20,000 nucleotides of DNA. It comes from an uncultured virus (IMG/VR IMGVR_UViG_3300003322_001263). Lineage: Duplodnaviria > Heunggongvirae > Uroviricota > Caudoviricetes. Below are positions 298 to 19,734 of this stretch, piece after piece. The stretch lies in the IMG/VR virus record IMGVR_UViG_3300003322_001263. One strand, given 5' to 3'. Numbering within the stretch: position 1 is the first letter of the stretch; each line of letters starts with the position of its first letter. The notes under the pieces were generated by a model. It saw only the letters and a program-made list of their open reading frames with translations, did not search any database and had not been told where the DNA came from. The translations under genes and the position numbers were made by a program.

Positions 298-335
298 ATA
301 TACCAATAACGGCATAACAAATAAAACTCAAAAAA

Positions 336-2024: not shown

Positions 2025-2049
2025 CTTTGCATGGATATACCCATCCACG

Positions 2050-2076
2050 GCCCGGTGTTTCTACATCGGGCTTTTT
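2050..2076 (+). terminator. Intrinsic terminator, TTCT loop
   Basis: GCCCGGTGT-TTCT-ACATCGGGC then TTTTT; G-U pair only works on + strand. Confidence 0.85.
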
Positions 2077-2104
2077 GTTTATTTGAATATAATGTGTATA
2101 TTTG
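2074..2104 (+). promoter_or_regulatory. Bacteroidota sigma70-type promoter P3
   Basis: TTTG 2074-2077, 19-nt spacer, TATATTTG 2097-2104. Confidence 0.8.
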
Positions 2105-2109
2105 TATAA

Positions 2110-2306
2110 TAAATATTTTAGTGGCGGTTCAATTATTTAATGTCCCGCATTTGTTAGCAGTTATTGGTATGTTTTTCATGGCGCGGGTGGTTTGTTTCCC
2201 GCGCCATATTTTAAACAAGGGCAATCGTTTTTCATCATACAGTAACAAAGATTAGGATTTTAGTTTAAGAAGTACGTGTGATCCCCTGTTTTTACAGGGG
2301 ATTTTT
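2110..2306 (+). ncRNA. Candidate small RNA(s) or structured leader between P3 and a terminator
   Basis: No convincing ORF; 10-bp stem 2178-2187/2198-2207; GTTTTTCAT at 2171 and 2227; ends in terminator 2281-2306. Confidence 0.45.
2281..2306 (+). terminator. Intrinsic terminator, TTTT loop
   Basis: ATCCCCTGT-TTTT-ACAGGGGAT then TTTT. Confidence 0.8.
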
Positions 2307-2338
2307 ACTTATTCGTTACCGTTATAAAGATGTAAGCA

Positions 2339-3157
2339 ATGAGAATAAACTATAAAAATACTGCATTAGGATTACTAATCAACATGGATGAACGCCAATT
2401 TAGATTGGTTGACGATGGCGGGGTTACCACCCGCGAACAAAAAACAAGAATGGGCTTAAGCATTGTTAGGGAATGGCCTAAGATGCGCGATAGGTTTGCA
2501 TATAATATTCGTTATATGAGCAAGTCATTTTATGAGGCATACGAAAAATCAGTAATCAAGCTAGCGGATGTTCTAGATGCCGAACCAATGGACGAACATG
2601 GTACAATTATATTTTCGCCTAATACGGGCGAAAATACTACTATATTTTACCATATACATACATGGGGTAAGGATGCAGATTTTAAAGTAGAAGCTGTAAT
2701 CTTTATGTTCACTAGTCACGCCGATAAGGACAAGCCTGCGCTTGCTGCATTTATTCAAAAATACCCGAATGGTGGCGTAAAAGAATATATATCAAAAAAG
2801 GCGCGCGATTTTGACATGACAGATGTTAGCATGTTCGCGGATATATTTACTTTGCTGCTTTTTATTAAATATTGCGATATTGAAACAAAAGTTATTGACC
2901 CAAAGAAGCAGCGTAAACAAGTGGTAGCAGGGCAAAAATATCTAAATGAAACCGATAAGCGCATAACTATATTAGATAGTACATGGTTTACTAATTTAGT
3001 AGTCAGTGGCGCATTTGGCGTAAGCGGTCACTTACGTTGGCAACCCTACGGACCGGGCCTAACACAAAAGAAGCTTATTTGGATTGACGACTATACAAAA
3101 GAAGGCTATACCCGCAAAGCAAAAGTATTAACTAAAACAGAAAACAATGGAGGATAA
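2339..3157 (+). CDS. Conserved hypothetical phage protein (272 aa)
   Basis: C-terminal VSGHLRWQPYGPG..KLIWIDDYTKEGY resembles a recurrent V-x-G-H-x-R-x-Q-P-Y-G phage motif of unknown function. Confidence 0.8.
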   Translation: MRINYKNTALGLLINMDERQFRLVDDGGVTTREQKTRMGLSIVREWPKMRDRFAYNIRYMSKSFYEAYEKSVIKLADVLDAEPMDEHGTIIFSPNTGENTTIFYHIHTWGKDADFKVEAVIFMFTSHADKDKPALAAFIQKYPNGGVKEYISKKARDFDMTDVSMFADIFTLLLFIKYCDIETKVIDPKKQRKQVVAGQKYLNETDKRITILDSTWFTNLVVSGAFGVSGHLRWQPYGPGLTQKKLIWIDDYTKEGYTRKAKVLTKTENNGG

Positions 3158-3338
3158 ACTACCATATACATATATTAGCCTAACTGAATTTAATGAAAAG
3201 GTAAAAGAATTTTCTAAGACCAATGTGCTTCTAAATAGTTTACTTGAAAATAAATATAGAACATGGCGGGAATTACCTGAGCATTTAATACAAGATTTAT
3301 TTAAAAAGCTTGGGTGTAAGCCTATAATTTATAAATAA
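3147..3338 (+). CDS. Hypothetical protein (63 aa)
   Basis: Start overlaps the upstream gene end; operon-like packing. Confidence 0.7.
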   Translation: MEDKLPYTYISLTEFNEKVKEFSKTNVLLNSLLENKYRTWRELPEHLIQDLFKKLGCKPIIYK

Positions 3339-3344
3339 CCAATA

Positions 3345-3578
3345 ATGGAAATAACAGACTTCCCGGTAACAGTTGCCTATAATATGGCAAATAAAAAAAT
3401 AGGCTGTGTATTAATTCAGGCCGCAATGGGCGCCACTATATCTAGATCATGAATTATCTTTGCTTTTGATACTAAATATTGGGAATTAAGCTCATCTAAA
3501 TGTAAATTGTATATCATAAATTCAAAAACAGAACTAGATTTCATGGTTCGAATAACAAAAGAAGCTTACAATGGATAA
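3345..3578 (+). pseudogene. 77-codon ORF interrupted by an in-frame TGA at 3450-3452
   Basis: MEITDFPVTVAYNMANKKIGCVLIQAAMGATISRS*IIFAFDTKYWELSSSKCKLYIINSKTELDFMVRITKEAYNG; fills the gap between 3338 and 3571 and overlaps the next start. Confidence 0.6.
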
Positions 3579-3885
3579 ACTAAAAATTGTCAATCCTACA
3601 TCAATAGACCTTGGCGATGCATTGGGTATTACAACAGATAGGCTAATAACCTTAAGCAAGGGCATGGATGAAATGGTAAACCGTGCCAGCGCTGGCGAAG
3701 TTCGGTTAGTGTACACCGTTGATATAATAAATTATATTCGCGGCTTATGCCACACAGAAGAAGAATTTATATGGGCGTATCATAACCATATAATATGGAT
3801 GGCACGAACAAATAGATTGTTTACTACCGCTGAGGCGCAAACTGTGGCAATAGAAAAATTTGGCAAGCCTTTCAATTTTAAATAA
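3571..3885 (+). CDS. Hypothetical protein (104 aa)
   Basis: Operon-packed ORF; no family recognised. Confidence 0.75.
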   Translation: MDKLKIVNPTSIDLGDALGITTDRLITLSKGMDEMVNRASAGEVRLVYTVDIINYIRGLCHTEEEFIWAYHNHIIWMARTNRLFTTAEAQTVAIEKFGKPFNFK

Positions 3886-3886
3886 A

Positions 3887-4099
3887 ATGTCGTTACCAAA
3901 AAAAGCCAGAAGCGGCGATTTATTTGATAAGGTTCTTATTAATGTATATGACCTAAAAACGAAACAAATTGTTTTTACTGGCGGGCAATGCCAAGTAGCG
4001 AGTTTTTTAAATATATCGCAATCACACATTTTTAATTATATAAAAACAAAATCTAAATTCAGAAAAAAATACGCCTTAAGGATGGCAAAATCAAAATGA
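3887..4099 (+). CDS. Small basic HTH protein (NUMOD1-like DNA-binding), 70 aa
   Basis: ATG 3887 directly after TAA 3885; INVYDLKTKQIVF..QVASFLNISQSHIFNYIK resembles NUMOD1/IENR-type HTH. Confidence 0.6.
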   Translation: MSLPKKARSGDLFDKVLINVYDLKTKQIVFTGGQCQVASFLNISQSHIFNYIKTKSKFRKKYALRMAKSK

Positions 4100-4503
4100 A
4101 AACATTTGGCAACTATTTATTAGAATTACTTGGCGGCATAACATTTATCATTTTTATGATGTGGCTTTGCAGCGCCTGTAATAGCCCACAGCGGCAAATA
4201 AAAATGATACATGACTACCAAGACAGCATTGGTATTACCAAGCTACAATTAGATTATATAGATCAACAGCGTGATAGTTTGGCTATGGCTTACCAAATGC
4301 ACTACCCAGCCAAGGCATTCCCGCGCATAGACACCAGCGCGCATTACGCGTATGTACGCGAGGAAAGCGCCGCCTACCATCAATTATTGAGAGATCAGGC
4401 CACATTTGACGCCCGCTTTGATCCGGTTAAAGTTCAGTATCTAGAAAACCTAGACAGGTATAAACGTATTGTTGACAGTTTAAAATTATTATTACATGAC
4501 TGA
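4096..4503 (+). CDS. Putative lipoprotein (135 aa)
   Basis: N-terminal Lys, hydrophobic stretch, lipobox-like LCSAC; ATGA overlap with the previous gene. Confidence 0.7.
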   Translation: MKTFGNYLLELLGGITFIIFMMWLCSACNSPQRQIKMIHDYQDSIGITKLQLDYIDQQRDSLAMAYQMHYPAKAFPRIDTSAHYAYVREESAAYHQLLRDQATFDARFDPVKVQYLENLDRYKRIVDSLKLLLHD

Positions 4504-4744
4504 TAGCTTAAGAATTATTATTGAGGTAACAGGTGGCTTGATACCGGGCAAAACTATGCCGCAGTATACCAAGCAATTTATTATTACTAGCGATACGTGG
4601 TATGCACAAGGTATTTATGAAGGCAAGCAAGAAGAAGCGCGTTTGGAAATATTAAAAGTATACGGTTTTGCACAAGAATATGCGCGTAATCTAATGAATC
4701 CGCAAGTGTGCAATTGGGTGAACTTAAATTGGCTGTACTTATGA
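4496..4744 (+). CDS. Hypothetical protein (82 aa)
   Basis: Overlaps upstream stop; operon-packed. Confidence 0.75.
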   Translation: MTDSLRIIIEVTGGLIPGKTMPQYTKQFIITSDTWYAQGIYEGKQEEARLEILKVYGFAQEYARNLMNPQVCNWVNLNWLYL

Positions 4745-4851
4745 GATTTTGGAAATTGTTTATTGATGGCTATTGTTACAGCGCAGGCATCTTGCTTGCG
4801 CTGGCTACTATATGGGCTATAATATATTTAATAAAAAACCGGCGCGGTTAG
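4741..4851 (+). CDS. Single-TM microprotein (36 aa), not in the ORF track
   Basis: ATGA overlap at 4741-4744; MRFWKLFIDGYCYSAGILLALATIWAIIYLIKNRRG. Confidence 0.6.
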   Translation: MRFWKLFIDGYCYSAGILLALATIWAIIYLIKNRRG

Positions 4852-4858
4852 CGCCGGT
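4833..4858 (-). terminator. Intrinsic terminator at the convergence of the two arms
   Basis: ACCGGCGC-GGTTA-GCGCCGGT with A6 on its left, giving a U-tract on the - strand. Confidence 0.75.
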
Positions 4859-4901
4859 CTGAATGGACAATGCAAATGAACAGCAGGTAGATGAGTGCAA
4901 A

Positions 4902-5294
4902 TTAAATTTCTGGTGCTGGCGTTGGTGTTGGTGCTGGTTGATCCGGCACGGTGCCTTCTAAGTCTGTTCTAGTAGTAGCTAAGTTGTTGCTAATATTAGT
5001 TAGACTGTTAGCAATGTCTTGAATCTGTTCCGCTGTTGCGCCGTTTGCAAGTTGCTGTTGCAAGGTTGTGATCTGGCTATTCAGGTCGTTTACAACTCCT
5101 GCATTAGTGTCAAGCAACTCCTGAACTTGCGCTTGTTCATTGTCTAATGCGGTTTGCAAATCTGTTACTTGTGTTTGCAAACTGCCTACTTGCGTTTTTA
5201 AATCATCAATAGCTGCCATAATTAAAGATTGATTTTGTATTATTAAATCTAATTTATCATTATCGGCTTCTAATACTTCTATACAGAATTTCAT
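4902..5294 (-). CDS. Coiled-coil protein with Pro-rich tail (130 aa; alternative start 5219)
   Basis: Heptad pattern IDDLKTQVGSLQTQVTDLQTAL; C-terminal PDQPAPTPTPAPEI. Confidence 0.75.
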   Translation of the reverse strand: MKFCIEVLEADNDKLDLIIQNQSLIMAAIDDLKTQVGSLQTQVTDLQTALDNEQAQVQELLDTNAGVVNDLNSQITTLQQQLANGATAEQIQDIANSLTNISNNLATTRTDLEGTVPDQPAPTPTPAPEI

Positions 5295-5351
5295 AGCCTA
5301 TAAATTTGTTGCAATATAAGCAAATATCGTACCTGGCAGTATTGCTAAAAT

Positions 5352-5382
5352 AAAAAAACGGCGGCTTTTAAACCACCGTTTT
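5352..5382 (-). terminator. Intrinsic terminator downstream of the virion operon
   Basis: - strand AAAACGGTGG-TTTAAAAG-CCGCCGTTTTTTT; the G-U pair only works on the - strand. Confidence 0.8.
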
Positions 5383-5445
5383 GCTTCTAGCGATTCTTTT
5401 TCACAAATTTCTATTACTTCACTTTCAGGCAGGCAGACCTGACTA

Positions 5446-5493
5446 CAAATGTAATTAAATTATTTACACTACCAATATTTTTTTGTACATTTG
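5446..5493. promoter_or_regulatory. Back-to-back divergent promoters, both with a TACATTTG -7 box
   Basis: + strand TACATTTG 5486-5493 with TTTA 19 nt upstream; - strand TACATTTG 5453-5446 with ATTG 19 nt upstream. Confidence 0.65.
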
Positions 5494-5496
5494 TTA

Positions 5497-5560
5497 TTCT
5501 CATAAAAGCAATAATTTTTCTCATTGGACTGGCCGGGTATTTCTATACCCGGCTTTATTT
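5497..5560 (+). ncRNA. Candidate ~60-nt small RNA
   Basis: Promoter 5463-5493, TTCTCAT twice (5497, 5518), terminator GCCGGGTAT-TTCT-ATACCCGGC-TTTATTT; no ORF. Confidence 0.5.
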
Positions 5561-6514
5561 ATTATTGGCAGCAACCCATTTTTTATATGCTGAACTACTT
5601 ATTACTTCATTATATAAATTAGGGTCTTGATTCTTTACAAGAGTGGCACTTACTGGCCCGGCTTGGTGGCCACAATTGTAACCGCCCAACAGCGTTAAAA
5701 AATTGGCTACTGTGGTGGTTGGGTACATACCATCGGGTAGCCCGGTTTTAGCATTTAAAGGCACTTTAACGCTCTTGCCATCTTTTGTATAATACAAATC
5801 CTTTGCCTTTAATAAGTCTGGTATTTGGCTTATATGGAAGTACCTGCGTTCGTGCATGGCAATACAGAATGGGCGGCTGGTATTAATCAATGTATTTTGA
5901 TAGCTATACCATTCATAACCCAAATCGCTACTTGCTATCTGTGTATAGTTCCTGTTATATTGATTAATGCTATCTACTGTAATTTGTTTTGTATACCTGT
6001 CTAATAAGCCGGGGCTTTTGTCGGTAGTTAAAATTGCTTCTTTTAGATGCGATTGCATATCTTTATAACTACCGCCTTGGGTTACATTCTGTGTAAGTAT
6101 ATCACTTATTGGCTGCGCTACATTTGCATCAATGCCATTTTCCATTAGCTTTGTTACGGTATCTTGAATAGCTATCTGTTTAATTTGCTTCAAAATACTG
6201 CTTGGTTTAAATGTGCTTTCCACTGTACGCCAATAACTATTTTGCAATGTAGTAAGGTCATTAAACGATTTTACAAACTGCTTTACTTGGCTCTTATAAC
6301 TATCGGTCAATATAACCTTAAGCAATTTATTCTTGATATTGCTTACGATTTTAATATTGCCTATGGTTGGCTTAATGCGCCCGTCTTGCAAATCTAGCTT
6401 TCGAAGCTCTTCGTCTAAGCTTTGCAGCATATCGGTTTGACTGGCCGGTATCTGCTCAATAAAAGTGCTTATGGCGTCGTCTATGCGTGCTATTATGTCT
6501 TTAAAATTTGGCAT
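5555..6514 (-). CDS. Minor head / head morphogenesis protein (MuF / SPP1 gp7-like)
   Basis: SRPFC and GGYNCGHQ motifs, helical N-terminus, immediately downstream of the portal (TAATG overlap). Confidence 0.75.
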   Translation of the reverse strand: MPNFKDIIARIDDAISTFIEQIPASQTDMLQSLDEELRKLDLQDGRIKPTIGNIKIVSNIKNKLLKVILTDSYKSQVKQFVKSFNDLTTLQNSYWRTVESTFKPSSILKQIKQIAIQDTVTKLMENGIDANVAQPISDILTQNVTQGGSYKDMQSHLKEAILTTDKSPGLLDRYTKQITVDSINQYNRNYTQIASSDLGYEWYSYQNTLINTSRPFCIAMHERRYFHISQIPDLLKAKDLYYTKDGKSVKVPLNAKTGLPDGMYPTTTVANFLTLLGGYNCGHQAGPVSATLVKNQDPNLYNEVISSSAYKKWVAANNK

Positions 6515-8409
6515 TATGCATTCGCGTTAGCTGGCTGATTATTGTTTTGTTGCTGCATGCTTGGCTGATCCATTGGCGGGTTATCGGCTTCGGTGCTGGT
6601 ATCTTGCACGGCTGTTCCGTCATTTTGGCCACCGGCCAGCGCAGCGGCAATAAGTTGTGACGCTTCGTCCATTTTTGTTATTTGTTCTACGGCATATTGG
6701 TTCATCAATTGCATCTGTTTGTCGTACTCCCAAGTATCGAAATCTTCGTTTTCAAACAACGCGCGTCGCACATACCAAACAAGATTATCGCTAATTATAT
6801 TGTTCTCGCGCGTAATTGTTTTATTCGCAGCCATAGCCAATTTATCTTCCACGGTACTGCCGGGTAATGGATCAAGTACATGTACAAGGCGGATAACCTG
6901 ATTTATGGCCGGATCCTGCGCAAAGCGTTTTGAAGCATACTCTACCTCCATTTCGCTTATAAGTAATGGATTAATTTTGGCGTCACGGGCACCCTTAATT
7001 TCGTCCCGCATGTATTGACTACTAATCAGATCATAGTGTTCTGGTACTGGTATTACAGGCACCATTTTATCAACGTCTTCTTTGGCATATATACCTAAAT
7101 AACGATAATAAGCTATAGTCCTATAAATCTTATCCATAAGCGCAATTAAATCTTCCGCGATACCATGTACCGTATTATTAAGTTCCTCCTTATCTACCTC
7201 TTTAGCTGTGCCACTTTGGTTGAGCGGTGTTTGTTCTAGAAACTGGAAGTTAATGGCGGCAAGTGCTTTATAGATATGCTTATCTACGCTTTCGTCCATT
7301 AGCTTAACAATATTAATATCCTTTTCAATATACCCTGCGGGTGGCGTTGGTAATGCCTGTTGTCCCATATCTGCCGGGCGTATTAATAATTTACTATATG
7401 GCCCGCTTGGAATGTAGCCGTTATGGCAATTTGTACATTTTAATTGACGCATTTCAGGCGCATCGCCTTCTTTCCAGTTTTGGTTAACAAGCATCCCAAC
7501 CCCTTTACACTTAGGGCATTCATGTTGTGTAAACTCCCAACGCTCTGGGTATATATTAAGCCGCTTACCGGCTTGCAAATCTGTATATTCTGCAACAGCT
7601 TCATTAAGGTTGGGTAGCATACCACTAATGCGGCTCTCGTATACAAAATTATTTTGTTCGCTATCGCATATAATACCCCCAAGCTTAAACGCTGGCAACC
7701 ACCCAAGATTATGTTGATAATCTAGCGCAAGTGTAAAATTCTTTTTTGCATCAATCTGGTCATACCGTTGTATGCTCATTGTATTAACAACATAAAAGCT
7801 ACGCCCTTGTTGTAATTTGCCTTTATTGTCGTAATAAATACAACCGGCAGCTATTTCAAGCACGGCGTATTCCTCAGATTTAAAGTCAATTACTTCGCAA
7901 CAATTGTATAGATATGGGAATGGGCTAAGATAATCTGTTACTTCAAGCCCTTCTGTAACAAGTGGCGCAATAAGTATCACCGCGTTACTGTCAATAAGAT
8001 ACTGCTTTAAAACTACATTGAAAATATAGTTTGTAAGGCTAGTAAAATATGGAAAATCTTTTTCGCAGTAATCTTCTAGTTCTTCGCCTTCTACTATTTT
8101 GTCAAATTTTTCATTTGGGTATACAATAGCCCAATCGCTTGACCTGCGTATTTTGCCAAGGCTACTAACCACCCGGCTAAATGTAGGCTTTGTAATGGGC
8201 TCCCATATTAAAAGCCTAAACTCCTTTACTATATCCGGTTCGTTTGGCCGTTGCTTATCTATAATATTGGTAGGCTTCTTGCCATCGCTATGCGGCAAAA
8301 AATCTTCATATTTTTTCTTACAATCTACATAAAAATAATGACGCATATCTGCATTGAAATAAGCGCGCAATTCTTCGGGTGTGAAAATCTTTACTGGTAA
8401 ATTTGCCAT
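6514..8409 (-). CDS. Portal protein with an inserted CxxCxGxG Zn-finger
   Basis: 631 aa; QSGTAKEVD motif typical of SPP1-like portals; adjacent to MuF-like gene; CPKCKGVG..CTNCHNG insert; low-complexity Q/N tail. Confidence 0.75.
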   Translation of the reverse strand: MANLPVKIFTPEELRAYFNADMRHYFYVDCKKKYEDFLPHSDGKKPTNIIDKQRPNEPDIVKEFRLLIWEPITKPTFSRVVSSLGKIRRSSDWAIVYPNEKFDKIVEGEELEDYCEKDFPYFTSLTNYIFNVVLKQYLIDSNAVILIAPLVTEGLEVTDYLSPFPYLYNCCEVIDFKSEEYAVLEIAAGCIYYDNKGKLQQGRSFYVVNTMSIQRYDQIDAKKNFTLALDYQHNLGWLPAFKLGGIICDSEQNNFVYESRISGMLPNLNEAVAEYTDLQAGKRLNIYPERWEFTQHECPKCKGVGMLVNQNWKEGDAPEMRQLKCTNCHNGYIPSGPYSKLLIRPADMGQQALPTPPAGYIEKDINIVKLMDESVDKHIYKALAAINFQFLEQTPLNQSGTAKEVDKEELNNTVHGIAEDLIALMDKIYRTIAYYRYLGIYAKEDVDKMVPVIPVPEHYDLISSQYMRDEIKGARDAKINPLLISEMEVEYASKRFAQDPAINQVIRLVHVLDPLPGSTVEDKLAMAANKTITRENNIISDNLVWYVRRALFENEDFDTWEYDKQMQLMNQYAVEQITKMDEASQLIAAALAGGQNDGTAVQDTSTEADNPPMDQPSMQQQNNNQPANANA

Positions 8410-8412
8410 AGT

Positions 8413-9288: not shown

Positions 9289-9289
9289 A

Positions 9290-10444
9290 TTAAAAACATG
9301 TTCCTAAATAAGTGACAGTGATTTGTGACTCAACAACTAAATTTACCGGGTTGCTACCGCTGAATTGCAGTACACATATTTCGCGCTGGTGTAATGGCCC
9401 AATATTAATACTGCGTTCTATGCCGTCGCAATCGGTATAGCTGCCCGCCCTAAAGTTATCAGGATCGGTATTAAATAATTCATAATCTCCGCAGGTGTCT
9501 GCCGGGGGTGGTGTTGTGGTAGTAAATGTTATAGATGCCGACGGGCTTTCGTTGCCGGTACCGCAATTAGTTAAAATATAAAAAATATATTCTTGGCCCG
9601 GTATTAAACCAGTAATATCGGCATGATCAGACGGAGATATGGTAGCCCCGCCAACTATTGTATTATCTGGTAAGGTGCGCAATTGCCAAATATACGAAGT
9701 TGCCCCTGCTGCCGGGGTCCAATTAACGGTAACTGAGGTTGTATCTAGGTTGGTTATATTTAAACCGGTAACCATTTGGCATGCTGGTATTGTGCCATTT
9801 AAATCCGCATATACATCGGCTTCGTCAAATTGTCCATTAGCACACTGCGCCCTATACGTTAATATTTTTGCATGCGTTAATGCTGGCATTGTTGTTTGTG
9901 TGTGAACAACAATCTCATTATTTGCATTGATAACCGCGCTCGCTAAATAGTTGCTATCAAATGTAACTAAGCTAATGGTAATAGGGTTGCAACATATTTC
10001 ATCATTAGCAAGTACATCTATAGTATAATCTGTATTTTCGTTTAACGTACCTGCATCGTCATCATTGGCAACAACCTGTATCATTTCTTGGCAAGTGCCG
10101 CAATTGCTATTAGTAGCATTGAATGGGCTTACCTCTGCTTTAAATTTGCCTTGCGCCAATGGATGGCTTAGAAAATCCTGCCATTCAATTTGATAATCAC
10201 CTTCTTGCGTTATAACGCCAACATATTTGTCACCTTCTACTTGAACGCTATCATGCACAAGCGCAATTTTTAAACGCTCATGTAACTTCTCAGGAATGCT
10301 GTCGGTAAGCCCTTCATATACCTTGCGCACAACAACGCTCAGCGTTACAGTAACTCCATTAGCTTTGCGATACCTGTTGGCATCTTCTAAAAACTGCGGT
10401 TTATGCAATTTAAAAGGTAGTCGTATGCGGTTGCTAAAGCTCAT
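9290..10444 (-). CDS. Virion/tail protein with Ig-like (Big_9/cadherin-like) and fibronectin type III domains
   Basis: VANDD..YTIDVLAND Ig signature; TSVTVNW..GATSY..TGLIPGQEY..C..TFTT FN3 signature (~9520-9781); Cys-rich C-terminal domain. Confidence 0.75.
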   Translation of the reverse strand: MSFSNRIRLPFKLHKPQFLEDANRYRKANGVTVTLSVVVRKVYEGLTDSIPEKLHERLKIALVHDSVQVEGDKYVGVITQEGDYQIEWQDFLSHPLAQGKFKAEVSPFNATNSNCGTCQEMIQVVANDDDAGTLNENTDYTIDVLANDEICCNPITISLVTFDSNYLASAVINANNEIVVHTQTTMPALTHAKILTYRAQCANGQFDEADVYADLNGTIPACQMVTGLNITNLDTTSVTVNWTPAAGATSYIWQLRTLPDNTIVGGATISPSDHADITGLIPGQEYIFYILTNCGTGNESPSASITFTTTTPPPADTCGDYELFNTDPDNFRAGSYTDCDGIERSINIGPLHQREICVLQFSGSNPVNLVVESQITVTYLGTCF

Positions 10445-10554
10445 TATATGATTATTGTTGTATTGGTTTCTAATTCAACTGTCATTGTTATTGATGGCGC
10501 ATCAACCACATGTATAATTGTAATAACGTCATTAAATTCAAATTCTATAATCAT
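10444..10554 (-). CDS. 36-aa Ile/Thr/Val-rich microprotein, not in the ORF track
   Basis: ATGA overlap upstream and TAATG overlap downstream; MIIEFEFNDVITIIHVVDAPSITMTVELETNTTIII. Confidence 0.7.
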   Translation of the reverse strand: MIIEFEFNDVITIIHVVDAPSITMTVELETNTTIII

Positions 10555-10940
10555 ATGGTTGTATAGCTTTTCTTTACTTTAAAGTTGCCTGTTAAAATAT
10601 ATTGCTGCGTGCCATCACCATATTTAACAAGTAAATCGTATTTATAATTATCAACGGTTAGTTTAATAATATCATCAAACTGCAATACATTATTCCCAAC
10701 ACCGCCTATGGTTGGCACAAGGTCTTGCTTAAAAGTAAAATCAAATGTGCCGGTATTATCAGCGCATGAACTGCAACCACAATCAGCGTTTTGCCGAATG
10801 CTCATTTTTACGTCGGCGCCGGTTAGATTTATTGGCTGGCTAAGGCTATCTAAAAATGTTATAGTAGCGTTAAACGTTTGGTTTTGTTTAACTGTTATAT
10901 CTAACCGTTTTGCAATTGTTGCATCAAGTACGCTGCTCAT
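10551..10940 (-). CDS. Beta-sandwich tail/baseplate accessory protein (BppU N-terminal-like)
   Basis: DITVKQNQTF..PINLTGADVKMSIR..YKYDLLV..GNFKV pattern; ATG 10940 preferred over 10952. Confidence 0.65.
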   Translation of the reverse strand: MSSVLDATIAKRLDITVKQNQTFNATITFLDSLSQPINLTGADVKMSIRQNADCGCSSCADNTGTFDFTFKQDLVPTIGGVGNNVLQFDDIIKLTVDNYKYDLLVKYGDGTQQYILTGNFKVKKSYTTI

Positions 10941-11091
10941 AAATGTATTCATTTAATAACACAGGCCAATATATAGCACTGCATAAAATTATAATAAAAT
11001 AAACTGCATGCACCATCAAAATATTATATCTTTTCCACCCAACATACGCCGAAACCATTACCCCAACAATATAATAAATAAGCAAAATCAT
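10924..11091 (-). CDS. Two-TM small membrane protein (55 aa), not in the ORF track
   Basis: ATGA overlap at 11091-11088; MILLIYYIVGVMVSAYVGWKRYNILMVHAVYFIIILCSAIYWPVLLNEYIYEQRT. Confidence 0.6.
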   Translation of the reverse strand: MILLIYYIVGVMVSAYVGWKRYNILMVHAVYFIIILCSAIYWPVLLNEYIYEQRT

Positions 11092-11237
11092 TTGCCTTTA
11101 TTTTTAAAATAATCCACCTGCTTAAGTCGTTTAACGGCTGCGCTTTTTGTCATACCGGGTTTGCTTAATGCCTTGTTGCCTGCTTTATTAAATACTTGGC
11201 AAGTCTTCTTGCCGTTTTTGGTTGTGCATTTTATCAT
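11088..11237 (-). CDS. Very basic 49-aa protein, not in the ORF track
   Basis: MIKCTTKNGKKTCQVFNKAGNKALSKPGMTKSAAVKRLKQVDYFKNKGK; KRLxQVxYFK ending recalls a small phage protein family. Confidence 0.7.
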   Translation of the reverse strand: MIKCTTKNGKKTCQVFNKAGNKALSKPGMTKSAAVKRLKQVDYFKNKGK

Positions 11238-11376
11238 AACTATTGGCTTTATAATAAAAATAAATAAATCTTACATATGCAATAGGATAATATACAATTT
11301 CGCGCATTGTAAATTTACCTATATATACTGCAGATTGCTTTATAAAAAACCTGCTTAACAAAATGAATTTTTTCAT
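11188..11376 (-). CDS. Hypothetical protein (62 aa)
   Basis: ATG 1 nt after the upstream stop, but overlaps the next ORF by 50 nt. Confidence 0.45.
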   Translation of the reverse strand: MKKFILLSRFFIKQSAVYIGKFTMREIVYYPIAYVRFIYFYYKANSYDKMHNQKRQEDLPSI

Positions 11377-11377
11377 A

Positions 11378-12127
11378 CTACATAATTTTTATAAATCCGC
11401 TTGCGTTGCCGCCAAAATCAAAATGTATGTTCGTTGGCGGGTATGTGTCTAATGAAATAACAATGCCAGCCGCAACTAACTCATGCGTAACCGGGTCTTC
11501 TATCCACGCTTGAACATTTGGCGTCAAGCCATATTTGGCTTGCAAGAATGCAGTCCATGGAATATCCAATGTTGCTTGATTAGTAAATTCTATAATGGTT
11601 GGTTCGCATTCGGCAATGTCTTGGCCAACGTCTTCGCCTGCGCAATAATTAAAACCAAATGCGTTTTCGGCATTAGTATATTCAAGCACGCTAGTATGAC
11701 AGTCATCAAATATACGCTGGAAGCAGTTGCTACAAAATGTTTGGTCGTCAATGGTTGGCTTGCTAATCATAATACGAAAACATTCGCCAATTTCTATGTA
11801 ATTAAAAAATGACGGTAGCCCCTGTTGCCATACATACAATATGCGTGTTGGGCTTATACGATAACGTGTTGGCTTTTCAATGAACTGTACAGCATAGGGG
11901 TCGCCGCAATTTTGCACCAACCCAACAACAATAGGTTCGCTATTAATTGTACAAAGCGCAGCACTTTCCGCTTCGGTATCGCTTTCAATTACAAACTGAA
12001 ACCATACATCATTAACGTCAAATACGGGCAAGCACATTTCTTCAGTTGTAAATTCGCAATCTACAATGTCGTCCGTATCGTCAAACTGGACGAAGCTAAA
12101 TTCGCTTGTTAATATTCTATACGACAT
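11378..12127 (-). CDS. Putative tail structural protein (249 aa), acidic and Cys-rich
   Basis: Position in the tail operon; C-terminal 77 aa paralogous to ORF 19733..19975. Confidence 0.7.
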   Translation of the reverse strand: MSYRILTSEFSFVQFDDTDDIVDCEFTTEEMCLPVFDVNDVWFQFVIESDTEAESAALCTINSEPIVVGLVQNCGDPYAVQFIEKPTRYRISPTRILYVWQQGLPSFFNYIEIGECFRIMISKPTIDDQTFCSNCFQRIFDDCHTSVLEYTNAENAFGFNYCAGEDVGQDIAECEPTIIEFTNQATLDIPWTAFLQAKYGLTPNVQAWIEDPVTHELVAAGIVISLDTYPPTNIHFDFGGNASGFIKIM

Positions 12128-12429
12128 TATGTTGTCCTGTTAGGTATAAATATATTAAATTCATTTATTAGCATGTTCTTAAAATTTTCATACGGCATGC
12201 ATATCGCGTATGCGCGCGCGCCCACCAATTCAACCGTAGTACAGGCTTCATCTTCGCTTGGGTTAAACCTTGCTATCAAATCTATGTCTATTACTATGTT
12301 ACTAGTATCGTCTGTTTTAGGCCACTTATCACGGTCGTCGCCGTGCATTATTTCGTAAGCCCTTACTTGTTCGTCGTTATAATTTCCACTCCATTTGACA
12401 GTAAATTCAACTAATCTCATACGCCCCAT
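12127..12429 (-). CDS. Hypothetical protein (100 aa)
   Basis: Overlaps both neighbouring genes. Confidence 0.7.
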   Translation of the reverse strand: MGRMRLVEFTVKWSGNYNDEQVRAYEIMHGDDRDKWPKTDDTSNIVIDIDLIARFNPSEDEACTTVELVGARAYAICMPYENFKNMLINEFNIFIPNRTT

Positions 12430-14645: not shown

Positions 14646-14850
14646 CGGTATCGCGCAAGTTTATACCCGTTAAGAAATAAGTATAGCCGTCTATAAAAAG
14701 CATACTGCCGCGCAATAATGCCATTGCTACATTATTAATCTGTTCTTCATTTTCTGCTTTCAAATCTTGAAGGAACTCAATCCAAGTTACGCCTACTTTA
14801 TCAATAGGGTTGCCTTGCGTGTGCTTGGTTATTACTTCTACTTTTTCCAT
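14635..14850 (-). CDS. Hypothetical protein (71 aa)
   Basis: Fills the gap between tape measure and tail genes. Confidence 0.65.
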   Translation of the reverse strand: MEKVEVITKHTQGNPIDKVGVTWIEFLQDLKAENEEQINNVAMALLRGSMLFIDGYTYFLTGINLRDTDGL

Positions 14851-14853
14851 ATC

Positions 14854-17800
14854 TTATTTTTTAAACCCCCTACGGTTATCTAAATATGTTTCCATGCTGT
14901 TACCTTTTTTGAACCAAGTCAACAAACCTTTTTCGTTTATATTCAAACCCATCTGCGGCATATTGCTGCTTATTACTTTGCCAAGCTTATCGTAGTCTAT
15001 CATATTGCCGCCATCGGCAATATGATGATATTCTTTTGTCTGTGCATCCTTAACTATATATGGCTGCATGGCATTGCGTTCTAGCATGGCAATTGTTTCA
15101 GCCGGGTTAAACACTTTATCATGCTTTCCTACCCAAACAACGCTACTCTTTTTTGCAAGGTACATATCACCGTTATGTTGCCATAATTCGGGGCCGGTTT
15201 CACCGATTTCGGCTGGGCCTTCGTAATTGTTTTTCTTACCTTTGCCAAATTTAGGTATAGGCTTGCTTGCAATTAATGCTACTTGTGCCGCGCCAAGGGC
15301 CGCAACAATAGCAGCGAACACCGGGCCCCCTTCAGCAAGGGCTTTAACGGTTGCAGCGGCGGCGTTGATAATTGCTTGGAATAGCGCAATTGCTTTGTCG
15401 CGTTGTGCTTGCTTACGCTTAAGGGCATTTTCTTCAGCGTCTAACCGTTTTTGCCGGGCCGCGGCTTCTTTTTCGGTAATGGCACCGGCATCTTTTAGGG
15501 CATCAATTTGCTTGCGCTGTTCGTCTATGCGCATTTGTTCGCGGTCGGTTTGTTGCTGACCAAAATCGCTAATTATTTGTAATACTTGGTTAGCTGTATC
15601 AACCGTAAATTGGACCTGCTTTTGAAATGTTTCTTTTTGCAGTTCCCGCTTCTTTAATTCTGTATTTTCAACTACTTCAAGTTCTTTATCTTTAAGCTGC
15701 GCCAACTTTAAATTATAATCCTGTTGGCTTATAAGCCCGCGCTTAAGGCTTTCATCAAGAGCATCTTCCTGCTTATATATTGCATCCAATTCTATACCGG
15801 CAAGCCTATTAACTGCGTTTATGCGTTCGCTTAACGACTTCCTAGTATTTGCTACTATGCGTTCATTTGCACGAGTTATTGCTCCATTTCTAGCAGCGTC
15901 CATTGCAAGTTCTTCTTCTAAGCTTTTTTGCAATGTAGCCAACCGGGCGGTGCGTATATCTTCGTCCATCTTGGCGCGTATTGCAGTTATTTTATCCGCC
16001 TCACCTTTGGCGGCGTCTATTTCTAACTGCGCTTGCAAAATAATATTCTGTTCTGTTAAGCCTAGCCGCTCTTGGTTGGTTTTATTAAGCTGGCTTAACT
16101 GTGCATTATTCAAGCTAATCTGATCATTTATTGCATCCGCTGTACTTTGTTTATTGAATTCTTTTTGTAATTGCAACTGATCAAGTAAAGCCTTTTCACG
16201 TATGGCGGTTTTTTGCTTTTCGGTTAAGCCAGTGGCAAGTAAATCTAATGCAGCTTTTTCTTGTATAACCTTTTTTTCTGCATCTATTTCTTTTTGTGAT
16301 TGACGAACTGTTATATCTTCACGTGCTGCTTGTATTTTTTGTAAAGCCGTTTCTGCAGCAACAACCCTATCGTTTTGCTGAACGCGCGCAAACTCTGCAT
16401 TAAGTTCTCGTATCTTTGCCTGTAGCTGCCGTTCTATAAGTATGCGCTTTTCTGTGTTATCACCGGCTTCGTTTAATGCAATGGCTGCTTGCGCGCGCGC
16501 GCTTTGCTTTGCTAACGAAAGTTCTTCAGCGCTGTTTTTACGCGCCAATGCTAACCGGCCATCTATACCATCTGCAACAGCTTGCAGTTGTTCGGTTTGT
16601 AATTGTTTTTCACGTTCGATTATTTTAATGCGAACTTGGCTGGCCGTATCTAACCGTTGCTGTTGTATTTTTTGGTAGCCATCTAAAAATTTTTGACTTT
16701 CGTCTAACAGGTCTTGATTAAATTCTTGTTCGCCGGTGCGTATTTTATTTATAGTTTCTTGTGCTATTTCTGCCCGGCCCCTATTTTCTTCTTCTATACT
16801 TTTAATGGCTTCTTGCGTAGAAAGAAGATCATTTATTTCTGCTTGAGTTATTTCGCTTTGCTTATCGCCGCGGGCCTTAGCCGCTGCCGCCAATTCATTT
16901 TGTATCCTTGCGCTTTGCTGCAATGTTTTATTTATATCGGTTTGTTGCGCTTCTAACGTATCATTAAATCCGGTTATATCTTTAGTCAATTGTTTAGTGG
17001 CTGCGCTTGTGCTTTTAAGCCAAAATACCAAAGCTGTTAGACCAAGCACTACGGCACCTATACCGGTTGTTGCAAACGCTACTCGTAATACAGCCATAAG
17101 GCCAATGCTTTCGCCTACAACGATATTATAAGCTTTTTGGGCGACTGTTTGCAAAAAGGTAGCTGCGGCACTTTCTTTTTGCAAGGCGTTGCCTATGGTC
17201 TGTAAACCCTGTAATATAGCGAGCGCACTATTTACCTTAAGCATTACTTCCTGCAATTGCTCATTGTCGTCCGTAAAAAGGCCAACCGCGCCTTGCGCAA
17301 CTGCAAAAGCACCGGCCAAGCCCTGTACGGTTTGTATTGCCCCATCTAATTTGCTTGTATCACTGGCAAAGTTATTTACCTGTTGAGCGGCATCGCTTAT
17401 GGTATCTTTAAGTTCCCCGGCAGCTTTAGCAAGGGCAAAATATTGTTCAGTGTTATCTTCACCGCGCAGTTTCATTTCGGCAAGCTGTAAGGTCATTTGC
17501 TTTAACTGCGCCTTAAGGCTCTTGGAGCTTTTTTCGGTATTTTCGTTGTTCTTATTAATAAGCTTGCCAAACTCATCAAATTCAAAGCCAGCTTCTTTAA
17601 GCGTATCTACAATGCCTTCGCTAAAACCACTAACGAAGTCAGTTATAAACTGTTCTATTCTGGCTTCCATTGCGGCAATGGTCTTTGCGTTCTGGTCTTC
17701 GGTGGATTTAAGTTGCTTGTTTAATCCATCAATAACCTGTTGCCTACGTGCCAATTCTGCATTCGTAGCTTTAAACTGATCTGCTGCCTTCTTGTCTATT

Positions 17801-17898
17801 TGACCATTGCGCAATAATGTTTGTTGCGCATTCTCTATTTGCTTATCATCTACAACAAACTCAATAAATACGGTTTCCGTACTAGTTGCTGTCGCCAT
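14854..17898 (-). CDS. Tape measure protein (1014 aa)
   Basis: Ala/Gln/Glu/Lys-rich helical protein with hydrophobic Gly/Ala segments and C-terminal GAAQVALIASKPIPKFGKG; follows a frameshifting chaperone-like gene. Confidence 0.85.
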   Translation of the reverse strand: MATATSTETVFIEFVVDDKQIENAQQTLLRNGQIDKKAADQFKATNAELARRQQVIDGLNKQLKSTEDQNAKTIAAMEARIEQFITDFVSGFSEGIVDTLKEAGFEFDEFGKLINKNNENTEKSSKSLKAQLKQMTLQLAEMKLRGEDNTEQYFALAKAAGELKDTISDAAQQVNNFASDTSKLDGAIQTVQGLAGAFAVAQGAVGLFTDDNEQLQEVMLKVNSALAILQGLQTIGNALQKESAAATFLQTVAQKAYNIVVGESIGLMAVLRVAFATTGIGAVVLGLTALVFWLKSTSAATKQLTKDITGFNDTLEAQQTDINKTLQQSARIQNELAAAAKARGDKQSEITQAEINDLLSTQEAIKSIEEENRGRAEIAQETINKIRTGEQEFNQDLLDESQKFLDGYQKIQQQRLDTASQVRIKIIEREKQLQTEQLQAVADGIDGRLALARKNSAEELSLAKQSARAQAAIALNEAGDNTEKRILIERQLQAKIRELNAEFARVQQNDRVVAAETALQKIQAAREDITVRQSQKEIDAEKKVIQEKAALDLLATGLTEKQKTAIREKALLDQLQLQKEFNKQSTADAINDQISLNNAQLSQLNKTNQERLGLTEQNIILQAQLEIDAAKGEADKITAIRAKMDEDIRTARLATLQKSLEEELAMDAARNGAITRANERIVANTRKSLSERINAVNRLAGIELDAIYKQEDALDESLKRGLISQQDYNLKLAQLKDKELEVVENTELKKRELQKETFQKQVQFTVDTANQVLQIISDFGQQQTDREQMRIDEQRKQIDALKDAGAITEKEAAARQKRLDAEENALKRKQAQRDKAIALFQAIINAAAATVKALAEGGPVFAAIVAALGAAQVALIASKPIPKFGKGKKNNYEGPAEIGETGPELWQHNGDMYLAKKSSVVWVGKHDKVFNPAETIAMLERNAMQPYIVKDAQTKEYHHIADGGNMIDYDKLGKVISSNMPQMGLNINEKGLLTWFKKGNSMETYLDNRRGFKK

Positions 17899-18198
17899 TT
17901 ATTTTCTCCCGTTGCGTTGCGCTTTTTTGATTTGCTTTTCTGTTTCAATTATCTTCTTGTTAAGCATAATAAAAAAGTCAAGCATGGGCATCTTACTAAT
18001 GTGATCTATTTTCACCGGATCATTGTCACCAAGCCAGCTCATTTGATCAAACCAACTATCTAAGCACTTTTGGATAATATATCGCGGAGCTTGGTTTGAT
18101 GTATCTGATCTATCATTATCGTCGCGTCCAAATAGCTTTGCGCACGTTCTTTGGATAATGCTCCAATCGGAATCAAATCTTTGAACGGCACACTCAAA
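17899..18198 (-). CDS. -1 frameshift extension (gpT-like) of the tail assembly chaperone
   Basis: -1 frame open from the T9 run (18204-18196) to TAA 17901-17899, abutting the TMP ATG; 99 extra residues. Confidence 0.7.
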   Translation of the reverse strand, partial: FECAVQRFDSDWSIIQRTCAKLFGRDDNDRSDTSNQAPRYIIQKCLDSWFDQMSWLGDNDPVKIDHISKMPMLDFFIMLNKKIIETEKQIKKAQRNGRK

Positions 18199-18656
18199 AA
18201 AAAATATAAAAGATCACCGTCCTTTTTCCATTCAGCAATCTTCTTCTTGTTATATTCAAAATCGTAGCCATATGGGCTTTCGGTTTCGTCAAAGAAAATA
18301 ACGCTGGCTAGTTTATATATGTGATCTGGGAATGGGGCTAAGTTAAGTCTTTCCTTTAGATTATTATTAATTTGGGCCAGATCGGTCAATTTTATTTTAC
18401 CGGACCCGGCGTTTAAAATCTTTTCCGTAGCTGCTATATGCATGCGTAGATATTCTTCATTGCAGCGCATTTTAAGTTCTGCAAATATTGCCATACTTGC
18501 AATGGCACGTCCTGTGGGCATCTTAAAATTATCCTGAAACTGGTAATATTTTTTACCATTATGCTTAAACGCTTCAGTCGCTATTTCCGTACCAAAAGCT
18601 TTTGTTTTAGGCTTTCGGGGCGGCAACATGCGCTTCATAATCTCTTTTAATTTCAT
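18060..18656 (-). CDS. Putative tail assembly chaperone (gpG-like, 198 aa)
   Basis: Directly upstream of the TMP gene; internal slippery TAT-TTT-TTT-TTG. Confidence 0.65.
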   Translation of the reverse strand: MKLKEIMKRMLPPRKPKTKAFGTEIATEAFKHNGKKYYQFQDNFKMPTGRAIASMAIFAELKMRCNEEYLRMHIAATEKILNAGSGKIKLTDLAQINNNLKERLNLAPFPDHIYKLASVIFFDETESPYGYDFEYNKKKIAEWKKDGDLLYFFLSVPFKDLIPIGALSKERAQSYLDATIMIDQIHQTKLRDILSKSA

Positions 18657-18921
18657 CTACCTGTTGTTTTAAATTGCTAATAGGGTATCTTGTAAATCCG
18701 GGCTGACCGGGTAATTGTAATAAATAAGTATGCGCGCGCAAATGCATCTTCATCATGCCAGCGGTTGTATCATAATTCATTTTAACAGTATATTGGCCGC
18801 TGCAATTACATGTACCCACTATTTTGAACCCGGCTTCCAATAACAATTGCTTGGCGACTGCATTGCCCTTCATTGATTCAGCTTTTGAGTTAGTATATGT
18901 CGCTGTTATTATCCTCTTCAT
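18607..18921 (-). CDS. Hypothetical protein (104 aa)
   Basis: Operon-packed ORF with a CNC motif. Confidence 0.65.
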   Translation of the reverse strand: MKRIITATYTNSKAESMKGNAVAKQLLLEAGFKIVGTCNCSGQYTVKMNYDTTAGMMKMHLRAHTYLLQLPGQPGFTRYPISNLKQQVDEIKRDYEAHVAAPKA

Positions 18922-18927
18922 GCTGCA

Positions 18928-19200
18928 TCACCTTTTATTGAATATATGGTACACAAGCCCGGCGCGATGATCTATAACTGTTTTGAAAAAGTGTAAATCA
19001 TTTGGCACTCTATCTCCTGTATATAATATCACAAACCAAACAGGTTCGTGTATTACATTTTCATTATCCTCAACGCCATACCATATACGTATATCGCTTT
19101 GAAAAAAATCAACATGATATACCCTGCGTTGCATTGGTAGGTTAATGCTTTGCGGCACGCCAATTAGTTCCTTCTTTAATGTGTACTTATTAATCTGCAT
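18928..19200 (-). CDS. Conserved small phage protein (90 aa, DUF7352-like)
   Basis: INKYTL..Q.INLP..IW..TG..F.TV..LVYHIF pattern; ATG 19200 minimises the overlap with the upstream gene. Confidence 0.65.
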   Translation of the reverse strand: MQINKYTLKKELIGVPQSINLPMQRRVYHVDFFQSDIRIWYGVEDNENVIHEPVWFVILYTGDRVPNDLHFFKTVIDHRAGLVYHIFNKR

Positions 19201-19558
19201 AATATTCTTTTTCTTGTTCATCGTCGTCATTAACTATCTCAACTTCATGCCGCTTGTCTACGAACTGGCTAATGGCTGCATTTATACCCATCGCGCCTAC
19301 GCAAGTAATAAACCAATCAAGCAGGCGTTCGCCTGTGGTTAATGGCGCAAACTTTGTTTTATCGTAAAACATTGTCCAGTATACGATACTACCAACCCAC
19401 ATGCATGCGCATATATAGCATCCGCCGATTGGCTTCCATAACCATTGCGGCATATTGCATTCCATCCAATCGCCTATGCGTTGGAAAATCATGCCTTCCC
19501 AGAATGTGCAACAATACCCAAGTGTAAAAAATGCTATAATTAAAATATGTTCAATCAT
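19190..19558 (-). CDS. DUF1360-like membrane protein (122 aa)
   Basis: Three hydrophobic segments, KPIGGCYICACMW (CxxC..W) motif, acidic tail. Confidence 0.6.
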   Translation of the reverse strand: MIEHILIIAFFTLGYCCTFWEGMIFQRIGDWMECNMPQWLWKPIGGCYICACMWVGSIVYWTMFYDKTKFAPLTTGERLLDWFITCVGAMGINAAISQFVDKRHEVEIVNDDDEQEKEYYAD

Positions 19559-19576
19559 ATTTGTGCTTTATATTTG
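19546..19576 (+). promoter_or_regulatory. Antisense promoter inside the virion operon
   Basis: TATATTTG 19569-19576 with TATG (1 mismatch to TTTG) 19 nt upstream. Confidence 0.55.
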
Positions 19577-19627
19577 CTGGGCGAAGACTCATCCTGTTCA
19601 AAACTGTTTTTTATTTAGTTATTTGGT

Positions 19628-19656
19628 AAACGGTGCATTTTTATGCACCGTTTTTT
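19628..19656 (+). terminator. Intrinsic terminator, TTTT loop, antisense to the operon
   Basis: AAACGGTGCAT-TTTT-ATGCACCG-TTTTTT. Confidence 0.75.
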
Positions 19657-19704
19657 GTATATTGGCACTGCTTAAGATTAGTATTCAAAGAGTATTTTAA
19701 TCGC

Positions 19705-19734
19705 CCCGGCTTGTTTTTACTTGCCGGGTTTTTT
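19705..19734 (+). terminator. Intrinsic terminator, TTTT loop, antisense to the operon
   Basis: CCCGGC-TT-GT-TTTT-AC-TT-GCCGGG-TTTTTT; no U-tract on the - strand. Confidence 0.7.

Follow-up and report, generated by a model that had tools for sequence, protein, structure and literature searches.

A T-TTYT-A terminator loop shared by candidate small RNA genes of an uncultured phage with Bacteroidota-type promoters

FopS (RF04319) and GibS (RF04182) are small RNAs (sRNAs) of Bacteroides thetaiotaomicron which consist of a single-stranded 5′ seed followed by a terminator, and which pair near or at the start codons of SusC and other messenger RNAs (mRNAs) (PMC11697453, PMC7366714). According to the available text of PMC11697453, the targets of FopS are enriched for SusC-like outer-membrane proteins, the RRM protein RbpB binds both FopS and GibS, and a copy of FopS was found in a phage. 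Here these RNAs are compared with a series of terminator hairpins in an uncultured soil phage (IMG/VR record IMGVR_UViG_3300003322_001263, 73,393 bp, rated complete), of which the last 20 kb, called the window, are the stretch of DNA that was analysed. Five + strand hairpins of the window share the apex T-TTYT-A: the first is T0 (2049-2080) and the others belong to four units, U1 (2110-2310), U2 (5497-5563), U3 (19581-19658) and U4 (19670-19736). Bare positions are window coordinates, and G000 denotes coordinates on the full 73,393-bp record. On balance, U1, U2 and U3 are probably sRNA genes of the FopS/GibS type, which would be made early by the host polymerase and would pair at translation-start regions, with a loop of the host sRNA type.

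The phage units resemble FopS and GibS in having a Sigma-ABfr promoter, a single-stranded 5′ part and an intrinsic terminator within 65-200 nucleotides (nt). The predicted fold of U2 is fully unpaired up to the hairpin, as in the FopS-type architecture, that of U3 is weakly paired before its terminator, and U1 has an extra hairpin. The 5′ end of FopS and GibS contains GTTTTTCAT, as U1 does twice. A conserved seed is not found, however: U1 and the FopS R1/R1′ seed have one internal piece of 10 nt (twice 9 nt) in common (p 0.037), and U2-U4 have 6-7 nt in common with it (the seed boundaries of FopS and GibS were taken from text, primers and Rfam). The FopS model of Rfam reaches at best 10.8 bits on the phage genome, for a gathering cut-off of 56, and at most 33 bits in three host-family genomes; it has no match in the related phage G037, and the positive control, B. 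thetaiotaomicron, gives 13 matches above the cut-off. The GibS model matches neither the window nor the rest of the genome (134 bits for its positive control). Rfam as a whole, run on the window, the remaining genome and the host and viral loci, returned only a tRNA, the GibS/FopS controls and sub-threshold noise. The terminator loops of FopS are of the AGGCGT/GGGAT type, whereas those of the phage units are T-TTYT-A; the 28 FopS/GibS-type loci among 30 fetched have loops of the AGGCGT/GGGAT type or of GibS, and none has TTTYTA (the first terminator of one truncated copy could not be resolved). Membership of the units in FopS was rejected, because the Rfam cut-off is not reached and the terminator loop is different. 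Unlike FopS, the bodies of the phage units are not paralogous copies of one seed, some of their predicted targets are the phage's own early leaders, and the likely host family is Chitinophagaceae.

PreS (lambda) and VpdS (VP882) are likewise phage sRNAs which use the host sRNA machinery on host and phage mRNAs (PMC12197685), but they are Hfq-dependent and proteobacterial, whereas several units per genome, with a common loop and no Hfq match, are observed here. The phage RNAs sar, OOP and STnc6030 are cis-antisense RNAs which tune timing (PMC12197685); unlike them, the units overlap only intergenic DNA and have their best predicted partners elsewhere. Few trans-acting phage sRNAs have been described, most of them in proteobacterial systems, and the available text of the review of phage sRNAs (PMC12197685) contains no occurrence of "bacteroid" or "flavobacter". 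The absence of Hfq from the phylum, which an earlier note on this DNA had stated, is borne out in five host-family genomes, none of which has a match. RRM genes are present in all five Bacteroidota genomes searched, with 2-4 per host.

The hairpins, boxes and motifs of the window

The elements of the units are the following.

2049..2080, + strand: T0 terminator with T-TTCT-A apex, 25 nt after the stop of a DUF932 gene (fold)
2097..2104, + strand: -7 box of U1, TATATTTG (sequence)
2110..2310, + strand: U1, candidate sRNA of ~200 nt (fold z -3.5)
2147..2171, + strand: tract of U1 complementary to the early leader 299-322 and, over 11-12 nt, to the leader at G000 52923
2171..2179, + strand: GTTTTTCAT no. 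1, the same 9 letters as in the GibS/FopS 5′ end (sequence)
2178..2207, + strand: strong internal hairpin of U1 (fold)
2221..2235, + strand: GCAATCGTT, overlapping GTTTTTCAT no. 2; 9 nt in common with host family C (p 0.026, post hoc)
2280..2310, + strand: U1 terminator with T-TTTT-A apex (fold)
5486..5493, + strand: -7 box of U2, TACATTTG, with TTTA 19 nt upstream (sequence)
5497..5563, + strand: U2, candidate sRNA of ~65 nt; TTCTCAT twice in the 5′ half; terminator 5531-5554 with T-TTCT-A apex
19569..19576, + strand: -7 box of U3, TATATTTG (sequence)
19581..19658, + strand: U3, candidate sRNA of ~75 nt; terminator 19628-19653 with T-TTTT-A apex
19658..19736, + strand: U4, with weak box TATATTGG at 19658, ~65-nt body and terminator 19705-19728 with T-TTTT-A apex

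The earlier note had described five + strand hairpins with the same apex, three -7 boxes and a weaker one, and segments complementary to start codons, and proposed that they form a set of trans-acting sRNAs. The hairpins are all found (2050, 2281, 5532, 19628 and 19705), with T-TTCT-A at 2050 and 5532 and T-TTTT-A at the three others; their folding energies of -14.6 to -17.8 kcal/mol (z -3.6 to -6.2) are equalled by none of 200 shuffles. The boxes at 2097, 5486 and 19569 and the weaker one at 19658 are present too. So are both copies of GTTTTTCAT (2171 and 2227), which are the only two in the window (0.41 expected; 14/200 shuffles reach 2), TTCTCAT at 5497 and 5518, and ACTCAT at 19587. For TTYTCAT itself the window shows no enrichment (12 seen, 9.0 expected), and - strand open reading frames (ORFs) of 19, 16, 36 and 13 codons begin at the CAT motifs.

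Two statements had to be narrowed. The restriction of the loop to the + strand holds in the window, where the - strand hairpins have other apices (C-TAACC-G at 4833, T-TAAA-A at 5352), and fails in the genome as a whole: of the 11 TTTYTA hairpins, by which the family extends beyond the window, one (G000 10043) closes a - strand gene and another (g26948) is bidirectional, and thus the strand asymmetry is not absolute. The stretches had also been called ORF-free, which does not apply to U1, where a + strand ORF of 74 codons (2031-2255) spans terminator and promoter.

The -7 box of U1 is preceded by TTTG 19 nt upstream, which is the spacing of the early promoters at 290 and 1066; this TTTG (2074-2077) is the U-tail of T0. 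T0 itself is probably the terminator of the early operon, bearing the shared loop, and not an sRNA. The box of U4 is interlocked with the tail of U3, and that of U3 can also be read as the A-rich leader of a - strand gene (19190-19558). Among the apex terminators, 3/7 have a -7 box within 30-110 nt, compared to ~8% expected (p 0.014).

The TTTYYA loop in the phage, its relatives and host genomes

TAnnTTTG boxes, the consensus of Bacteroidota promoters (PMC7366714), precede the early phage genes, which indicates a Bacteroidota host. The exact 20-nt core of the 2050 hairpin (T0) occurs in ~140 genome stretches, and is identical to terminators in Chitinophagaceae genomes; the 120 matches listed are all from Bacteroidota and most of them bear Chitinophagaceae names, and this family is therefore the likely host family.

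A general terminator loop of the host clade would have been a trivial explanation of the shared apex, as the earlier note had recognised. It is not what the counts show. The apex TTT[CT][CT]A occurs in 7/19 intergenic terminators of the phage and in 10/55 of five related phages, compared to 5/170 in hosts (p 2e-5 and 4e-4, respectively); the host set covers 400 kb of each of two genomes (800 kb), and one terminator finder was used throughout. A stricter run gives 6/13 for the phage, 1/6 for relatives, and 3/61 and 0/47 for the hosts. The TTTYYA apex is thus not the clade's general terminator loop. An anti-start-codon motif is found within 70 nt upstream of 8/15 apex terminators, compared to 11/210 others, in hosts and relatives (p 2e-6). 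No thermodynamic reason for the loop was retained, since 32/256 loops are more stable. In an alignment of 13 hairpins, 9/10 stem pairs are changed on both sides and the apex is fixed; these hairpins were chosen for their loop, so that the alignment shows the freedom of the stem and not an enrichment of the loop. In 13 host-family genomes, for each of which 150 candidates were scored, the hairpin covariance model has at least 4-31 matches per genome at E<=1; at E<=0.01, five Flavobacteriales genomes have 3-5 matches, four genomes of other Bacteroidota 0-2 and seven from outside the Bacteroidota 0-5.

Viral contigs were searched for a -7 box followed, after 40-70 nt, by G-TTTYTA-C and a T-run. 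The matches form hairpins in 34/121 sampled cases (16/94 after de-duplication), compared to 3/120 with the reverse-complement loop and 2/120 with a scrambled box. TCAT, which is absent from the query, lies in the first 25 nt after the box in 7/16 hairpin matches and 11/78 others. With TTCTCAT plus the loop as the query, a hairpin is found at 9/120 loci. Tandem interlocked units resembling U3-U4 recur in these contigs. A degenerate pattern, which cannot demand pairing, is for that reason not more frequent than its control in five hosts.

In hosts, the TTTYYA loop closes highly conserved non-coding elements, here called families A, B and C, none of which is in Rfam and all of which have the terminator apex in common with the phage units. 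Most copies of family A have their own -7 box 20-120 nt upstream, and the family is complementary to host start regions (34, compared to 11 and 8 in control windows, p 0.01); it looks like a core sRNA of Chitinophagaceae. The 20-nt core of T0 is shared with family A terminators. Family B starts with TTTTCTCATA and is multicopy: among 20 loci fetched by the seed alone, 19 are non-coding and end in a terminator, and one is a real gene start. The terminators of these 19 loci have TTTCTA in 11 cases and a one-letter variant in 6. At 23/28 positions the 5′ half of U2 has the same letters as that of four family-B copies (p 0.01, the shared 9-mer being kept fixed), but U2 lacks the invariant 3′ core of the family. 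Family C starts with TTTCATA; U1 is a mosaic, which has 9 nt in common with it. U1 was also considered as a copy of the family-B core, but the likeness is slight (8 nt, p 0.30), and the match to an early leader described below accounts for it better.

What is added here is a loop signal measured against controls. A fixed loop which marks sRNA-type 3′ ends, and which is about tenfold over-represented among the phage terminators, would be a bait for the missing protein of sRNA control without Hfq in Bacteroidota, and an easy means of searching uncultured members of the phylum, together with their phages, for sRNA genes. The literature consulted, from which subscription papers and sequences given in figures were out of reach, yielded no description of this loop or of Chitinophagaceae sRNA families.

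As further observations on the host elements, family A (L002-L121) consists, across Chitinophagaceae, of ~30 nt which hardly vary and which precede the TTTCTA terminator; its own -7 box often lies 55-95 nt upstream. Family-B-like cores lie in the 3′ untranslated region (UTR) of one gene in Chitinophagaceae and Flavobacterium (L176, L191, L051, L337, L726), where they are candidates for a 3′-derived sRNA; by its C-terminal sequence this gene looks like a small heat-shock gene. Clean box-to-TTTCTA units of ~60 nt occur in seven other viral contigs (L464, L470, L479, L542, L551, L564 and L565), some of them in tandem or on both strands and many starting with CATA.

Predicted targets and competing explanations

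In the proposed mechanism, U1, U2 and U3 would be transcribed as stand-alone genes by the host housekeeping polymerase, and their RNAs would repress translation through pairing at translation-start regions. U2 and the GTTTTTCAT of U1 would hit host mRNAs which start with AUG-AGA-AAA or AUG-AAA-AA and often code for exported proteins, the phage's own earliest genes would be turned down by U1 through its 5′ tract and by U3 through its U-tract, and the T-TTYY-A loop would be a handle for a host RNA-binding protein or 3′-end machinery borrowed by the phage RNAs.

Targets were assessed by k-mer and alignment tests in place of duplex energies; whole-length duplex energies, calculated for two units, did not separate start regions from coding DNA. 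U1a and U1b denote the two halves of U1. Complementary 8-mers at host AUG codons are found for U1a at 68/611 starts (15 and 12 in two control windows, shuffle p 0.063), for U1b at 58/611 (21 and 13, p 0.013) and for U2 at 38/611 (14 and 14, p 0.056). FopS, run through the same test as a control, gives 63/611 (12 and 6, p 0.010). The best host matches of U2, of 14 and 13 nt, lie at starts which read MRK.. and have signal-peptide-like N-termini (p 0.024 for the 14-nt match). T0 has no target signal in the k-mer and best-match tests, and U4 has none in these two or in the test against the phage's own starts.

For the phage's own genes, the features concerned are the following.

290..297, + strand: early host-type promoter, -7 box TATATTTG, with TTTG 19 nt upstream (sequence)
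299..322, + strand: 5′ leader of the early gene 336-554, to which U1 is predicted to pair in trans (22-bp duplex, -24.0 kcal/mol; prediction)

It is the U1 tract 2147-2171 which would pair in this duplex; for the same tract, a shorter pairing is predicted with another early leader, at G000 52923. The leader 299-322 is the best match of U1a both among 127 phage starts (p 0.042) and genome-wide (p 0.13). The U-rich tract of U3 (19605-19627) is complementary to early-gene leaders upstream of the AUG, and its three best matches among phage starts are early-gene starts (p 0.012). A similar tract is found in the unit at G000 32647-32725.

The proposal that the hairpins mark trans-acting sRNAs masking start codons thus fares unevenly. 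The loop is tied to promoter-terminator units and to anti-start motifs, which agrees with it; that all five hairpins belong to such RNAs is not supported. Complementarity to host AUG regions exceeds that to the control windows for U1 and U2, at modest p-values. The ACTCAT of U3 and the whole of U4 are without a start-codon signal, and the pairing predicted for U3 involves leaders upstream of the AUG, through its U-rich tract, and not the start codon.

Several results weigh against an sRNA function of U1-U3. The p-values for targets are modest and uncorrected (0.01-0.06 for U1, U2 and U3), and the host tests were run on stand-in genomes and not on the true host strain. In the own-start test, 2/9 units of the phage and 1/14 of relatives have p<0.05; ~1 in 23 is expected by chance, so that self-targeting by the units is suggestive only. 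Genome-wide, none of the units reaches significance (p 0.07-0.85). Across 41 host-family genomes there is no enrichment of the 15-nt complement of U2 (10 occurrences, 7 for a control pattern), and only 3 of the 10 begin a long gene. Nor is there any enrichment at host AUG codons for U3, U4, T0 or the G000 32647 unit. In the predicted fold of U1, the AT of the first GTTTTTCAT lies at the base of the internal hairpin and is partly paired, as is much of the anti-leader tract, and the A-rich leader of the opposite strand may by itself account for the box of U3.

The comparison with relatives is mixed as well. In 13/13 relatives examined (48-72% protein identity; one fragment covers only 100 nt) U2 is not at its position, and no antisense unit with TTTYTA follows the minor-head gene. 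The relative G038 is without any apex terminator. In G037, by contrast with G038, TTTYTA units with TTTTTTTCATA and GCAATCGTTAG, including a 12-nt family-C word, follow a DUF932-like gene, and G001, G040 and G041 have CAT-bearing units of their own. The relatives were found by alignments, single-protein locus searches having yielded none or one; closer relatives exist as proteins (75-93% identity). As far as sequence tells, the design of these candidate units recurs among relatives and the individual RNAs turn over.

The loop is also found outside such units: 18/30 of the best host model matches lie within 45 nt of a same-strand stop, the T0 and G000 10043 hairpins likewise end ordinary genes, and the exact 16-nt hairpin is also present in non-Bacteroidota genomes. 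The loop is therefore enriched at sRNA-type 3′ ends and not confined to them; some of the gene-end hairpins may themselves close 3′-UTR-derived RNAs.

These gene-end hairpins, together with one in the relative L768, are what would be expected if the hairpins were ordinary one-way terminators or insulators which block + strand read-through into the late operon, the loop being a lineage-favoured, copied terminator design, and the boxes and CATs being by-products of AT-rich DNA with A-rich leaders on the other strand. The position of U2-U4 in gaps of the late operon, the absence of U2 from the matching place in relatives, the lack of TTYTCAT enrichment in the window and the overlap of the U3 box with the leader of the 19558 gene all fit such terminators. 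They do not account for the boxes found near 3/7 apex terminators, nor for the drop from 34/121 to 2/120 when the box is scrambled or the anti-start link (8/15 vs 11/210); moreover, the -33/-7 promoter of U1 is spaced like the early promoters and U2 resembles host family B. We consider this explanation unlikely, but it deserves to be kept in mind.

If the loop is a handle for a host protein, the units could also be decoys, whose loop and U-rich bodies would titrate an RNA-binding protein of the host, RRM/RbpB-like or other, and thereby block sRNA control in the host. The phage has 11 loop hairpins in 73 kb, compared to the at least 4-31 model matches per host-family genome given above; most bodies are unrelated and keep the loop, and the hosts have 2-4 RRM genes and no Hfq match. 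RbpB binds FopS and GibS (PMC11697453), and VpdS competes for Hfq (PMC12197685). However, RbpB has its footprint on single-stranded sequence of FopS, whose terminators carry different loops, and the complementarity of U1 and U3 to the phage's own leaders would be needless in a decoy, which makes this role improbable.

The late gene 5555-6514 has U2 antisense to its 3′ end, and U2, U3, U4 and the unit at G000 32647, all provided with host-type boxes, lie antisense in gaps of the late operons, where they overlap a late leader or 3′ end. They could then act only in cis, as short antisense RNAs or by transcriptional interference which holds down the late - strand transcript early, for which sar, OOP and STnc6030 are precedents (PMC12197685). 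Yet no gene lies opposite U1, only intergenic DNA falls within the overlaps, and the likeness to host seeds and the trans matches to early leaders would be left unexplained; cis action alone seems quite improbable. That the CATs are start codons of tiny - strand peptides (of 19, 16, with an ATGA overlap, 36 and 13 codons), or the late - strand mRNA a target mimic which sponges family-B sRNAs (the strand opposite U2 reads as an MRKI.. start complementary to family B), is hardly credible, as no - strand TAnnTTTG box was found in 2101-2700, the equivalent ORFs in hosts range from ~4 to 54 codons with no common frame, and the U-tail is on the + strand only.

TTTCTAC is a stem strand in the Cas12a repeat; in the phage hairpins it lies across the loop. 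A mimic of this repeat, or an RNA anti-CRISPR (solitary repeat), was rejected, no unit having a CRISPR match in Rfam. A dCas12f guide was rejected too, having no model match and a different anatomy in the available text of PMC13472631.

To return to the reading of U1-U3 as phage sRNA genes, a broader version of it is a tentative possibility, more doubtful than probable: T-TTYY-A would be a Bacteroidota-wide sRNA tag, whose loop would be read by an RNA chaperone replacing Hfq in Chitinophagaceae and Flavobacteriia. Lytic phages would exploit this tag with sets of tagged mosaic sRNAs, assembled from host seeds which they had captured, and would silence host outer-membrane and exported proteins and their own immediate-early genes.

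The phage, its likely host and neighbouring features

One DNA run, which may be the source sample, matches the window throughout with no differences. The window contains the end of the early + strand block and then a - strand virion operon, which encodes the portal, tape-measure and structural genes. The last early gene before T0 is as follows.

1122..2024, + strand: DUF932 gene, last gene before hairpin T0 (Pfam PF06067, E 1e-15)

The remainder of the genome encodes a terminase, a primase, a helicase, four sigma-factor-like proteins and DNA-modifying enzymes. The Pfam scan of 98 phage proteins, in which small ORFs were covered in part, detected no integrase and no RRM protein; since no integrase was detected, a lytic life style is likely. 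A sigma-70 promoter scan is uninformative (78 matches, 66.5 expected). The four sigma-70 or ECF-like genes of this 73-kb phage lie at G000 9422-12352 and 27707-29862; the phage also encodes a Tet/JBP oxygenase, a TET-associated glycosyltransferase, two DNA methylases and several glycosyltransferases.

Back-to-back with the box of U2, another TACATTTG box is present on the - strand (5446-5352), followed after ~75 nt by a hairpin and U-run before the gene 4902-5294. This unit may be a leader acting like an attenuator, or else a further short RNA whose loop differs. The relatives L767 and L768 have a comparable box and hairpin after their minor-head gene.

A further box-to-TTTTTA unit (G000 32635-32725, L124) adjoins a helix-turn-helix gene. 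It has a seed-like tract in common with U3 and with a Flavobacterium element (L234), and its best match in the genome lies in an early gene, at window positions 14-33 (p 0.21).

Directly after U1 lies a gene of 272 amino acids (2339-3157, + strand), conserved in the phage group (226 homologs). A minority of its homologs carry PF26125, which is AcrVA2-like (16% of one atlas cluster); this is a lead only. AcrVA2 triggers translation-dependent mRNA decay (10.1101/2022.11.29.518452), and the gene may be a second post-transcriptional tool beside the candidate sRNA.

Elsewhere in the genome, ARAGORN calls a tRNA-Ala(cgc) at G000 45805-45882 (L123 306-383), in an ORF-free stretch with more tRNA-like arms. 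At G000 28190-28790 (L122), a degenerate tRNA (38 bits in Rfam, missed by ARAGORN) and tRNA-like T-arms stand together with four TTTYYA hairpins; 9 nt of the bodies of this cluster recur in host family C, and 10 nt in the 3′ core of FopS. The relative G037 also couples a tRNA-like sequence to TTTYYA units, a coupling which suggests tRNA-processed sRNAs.

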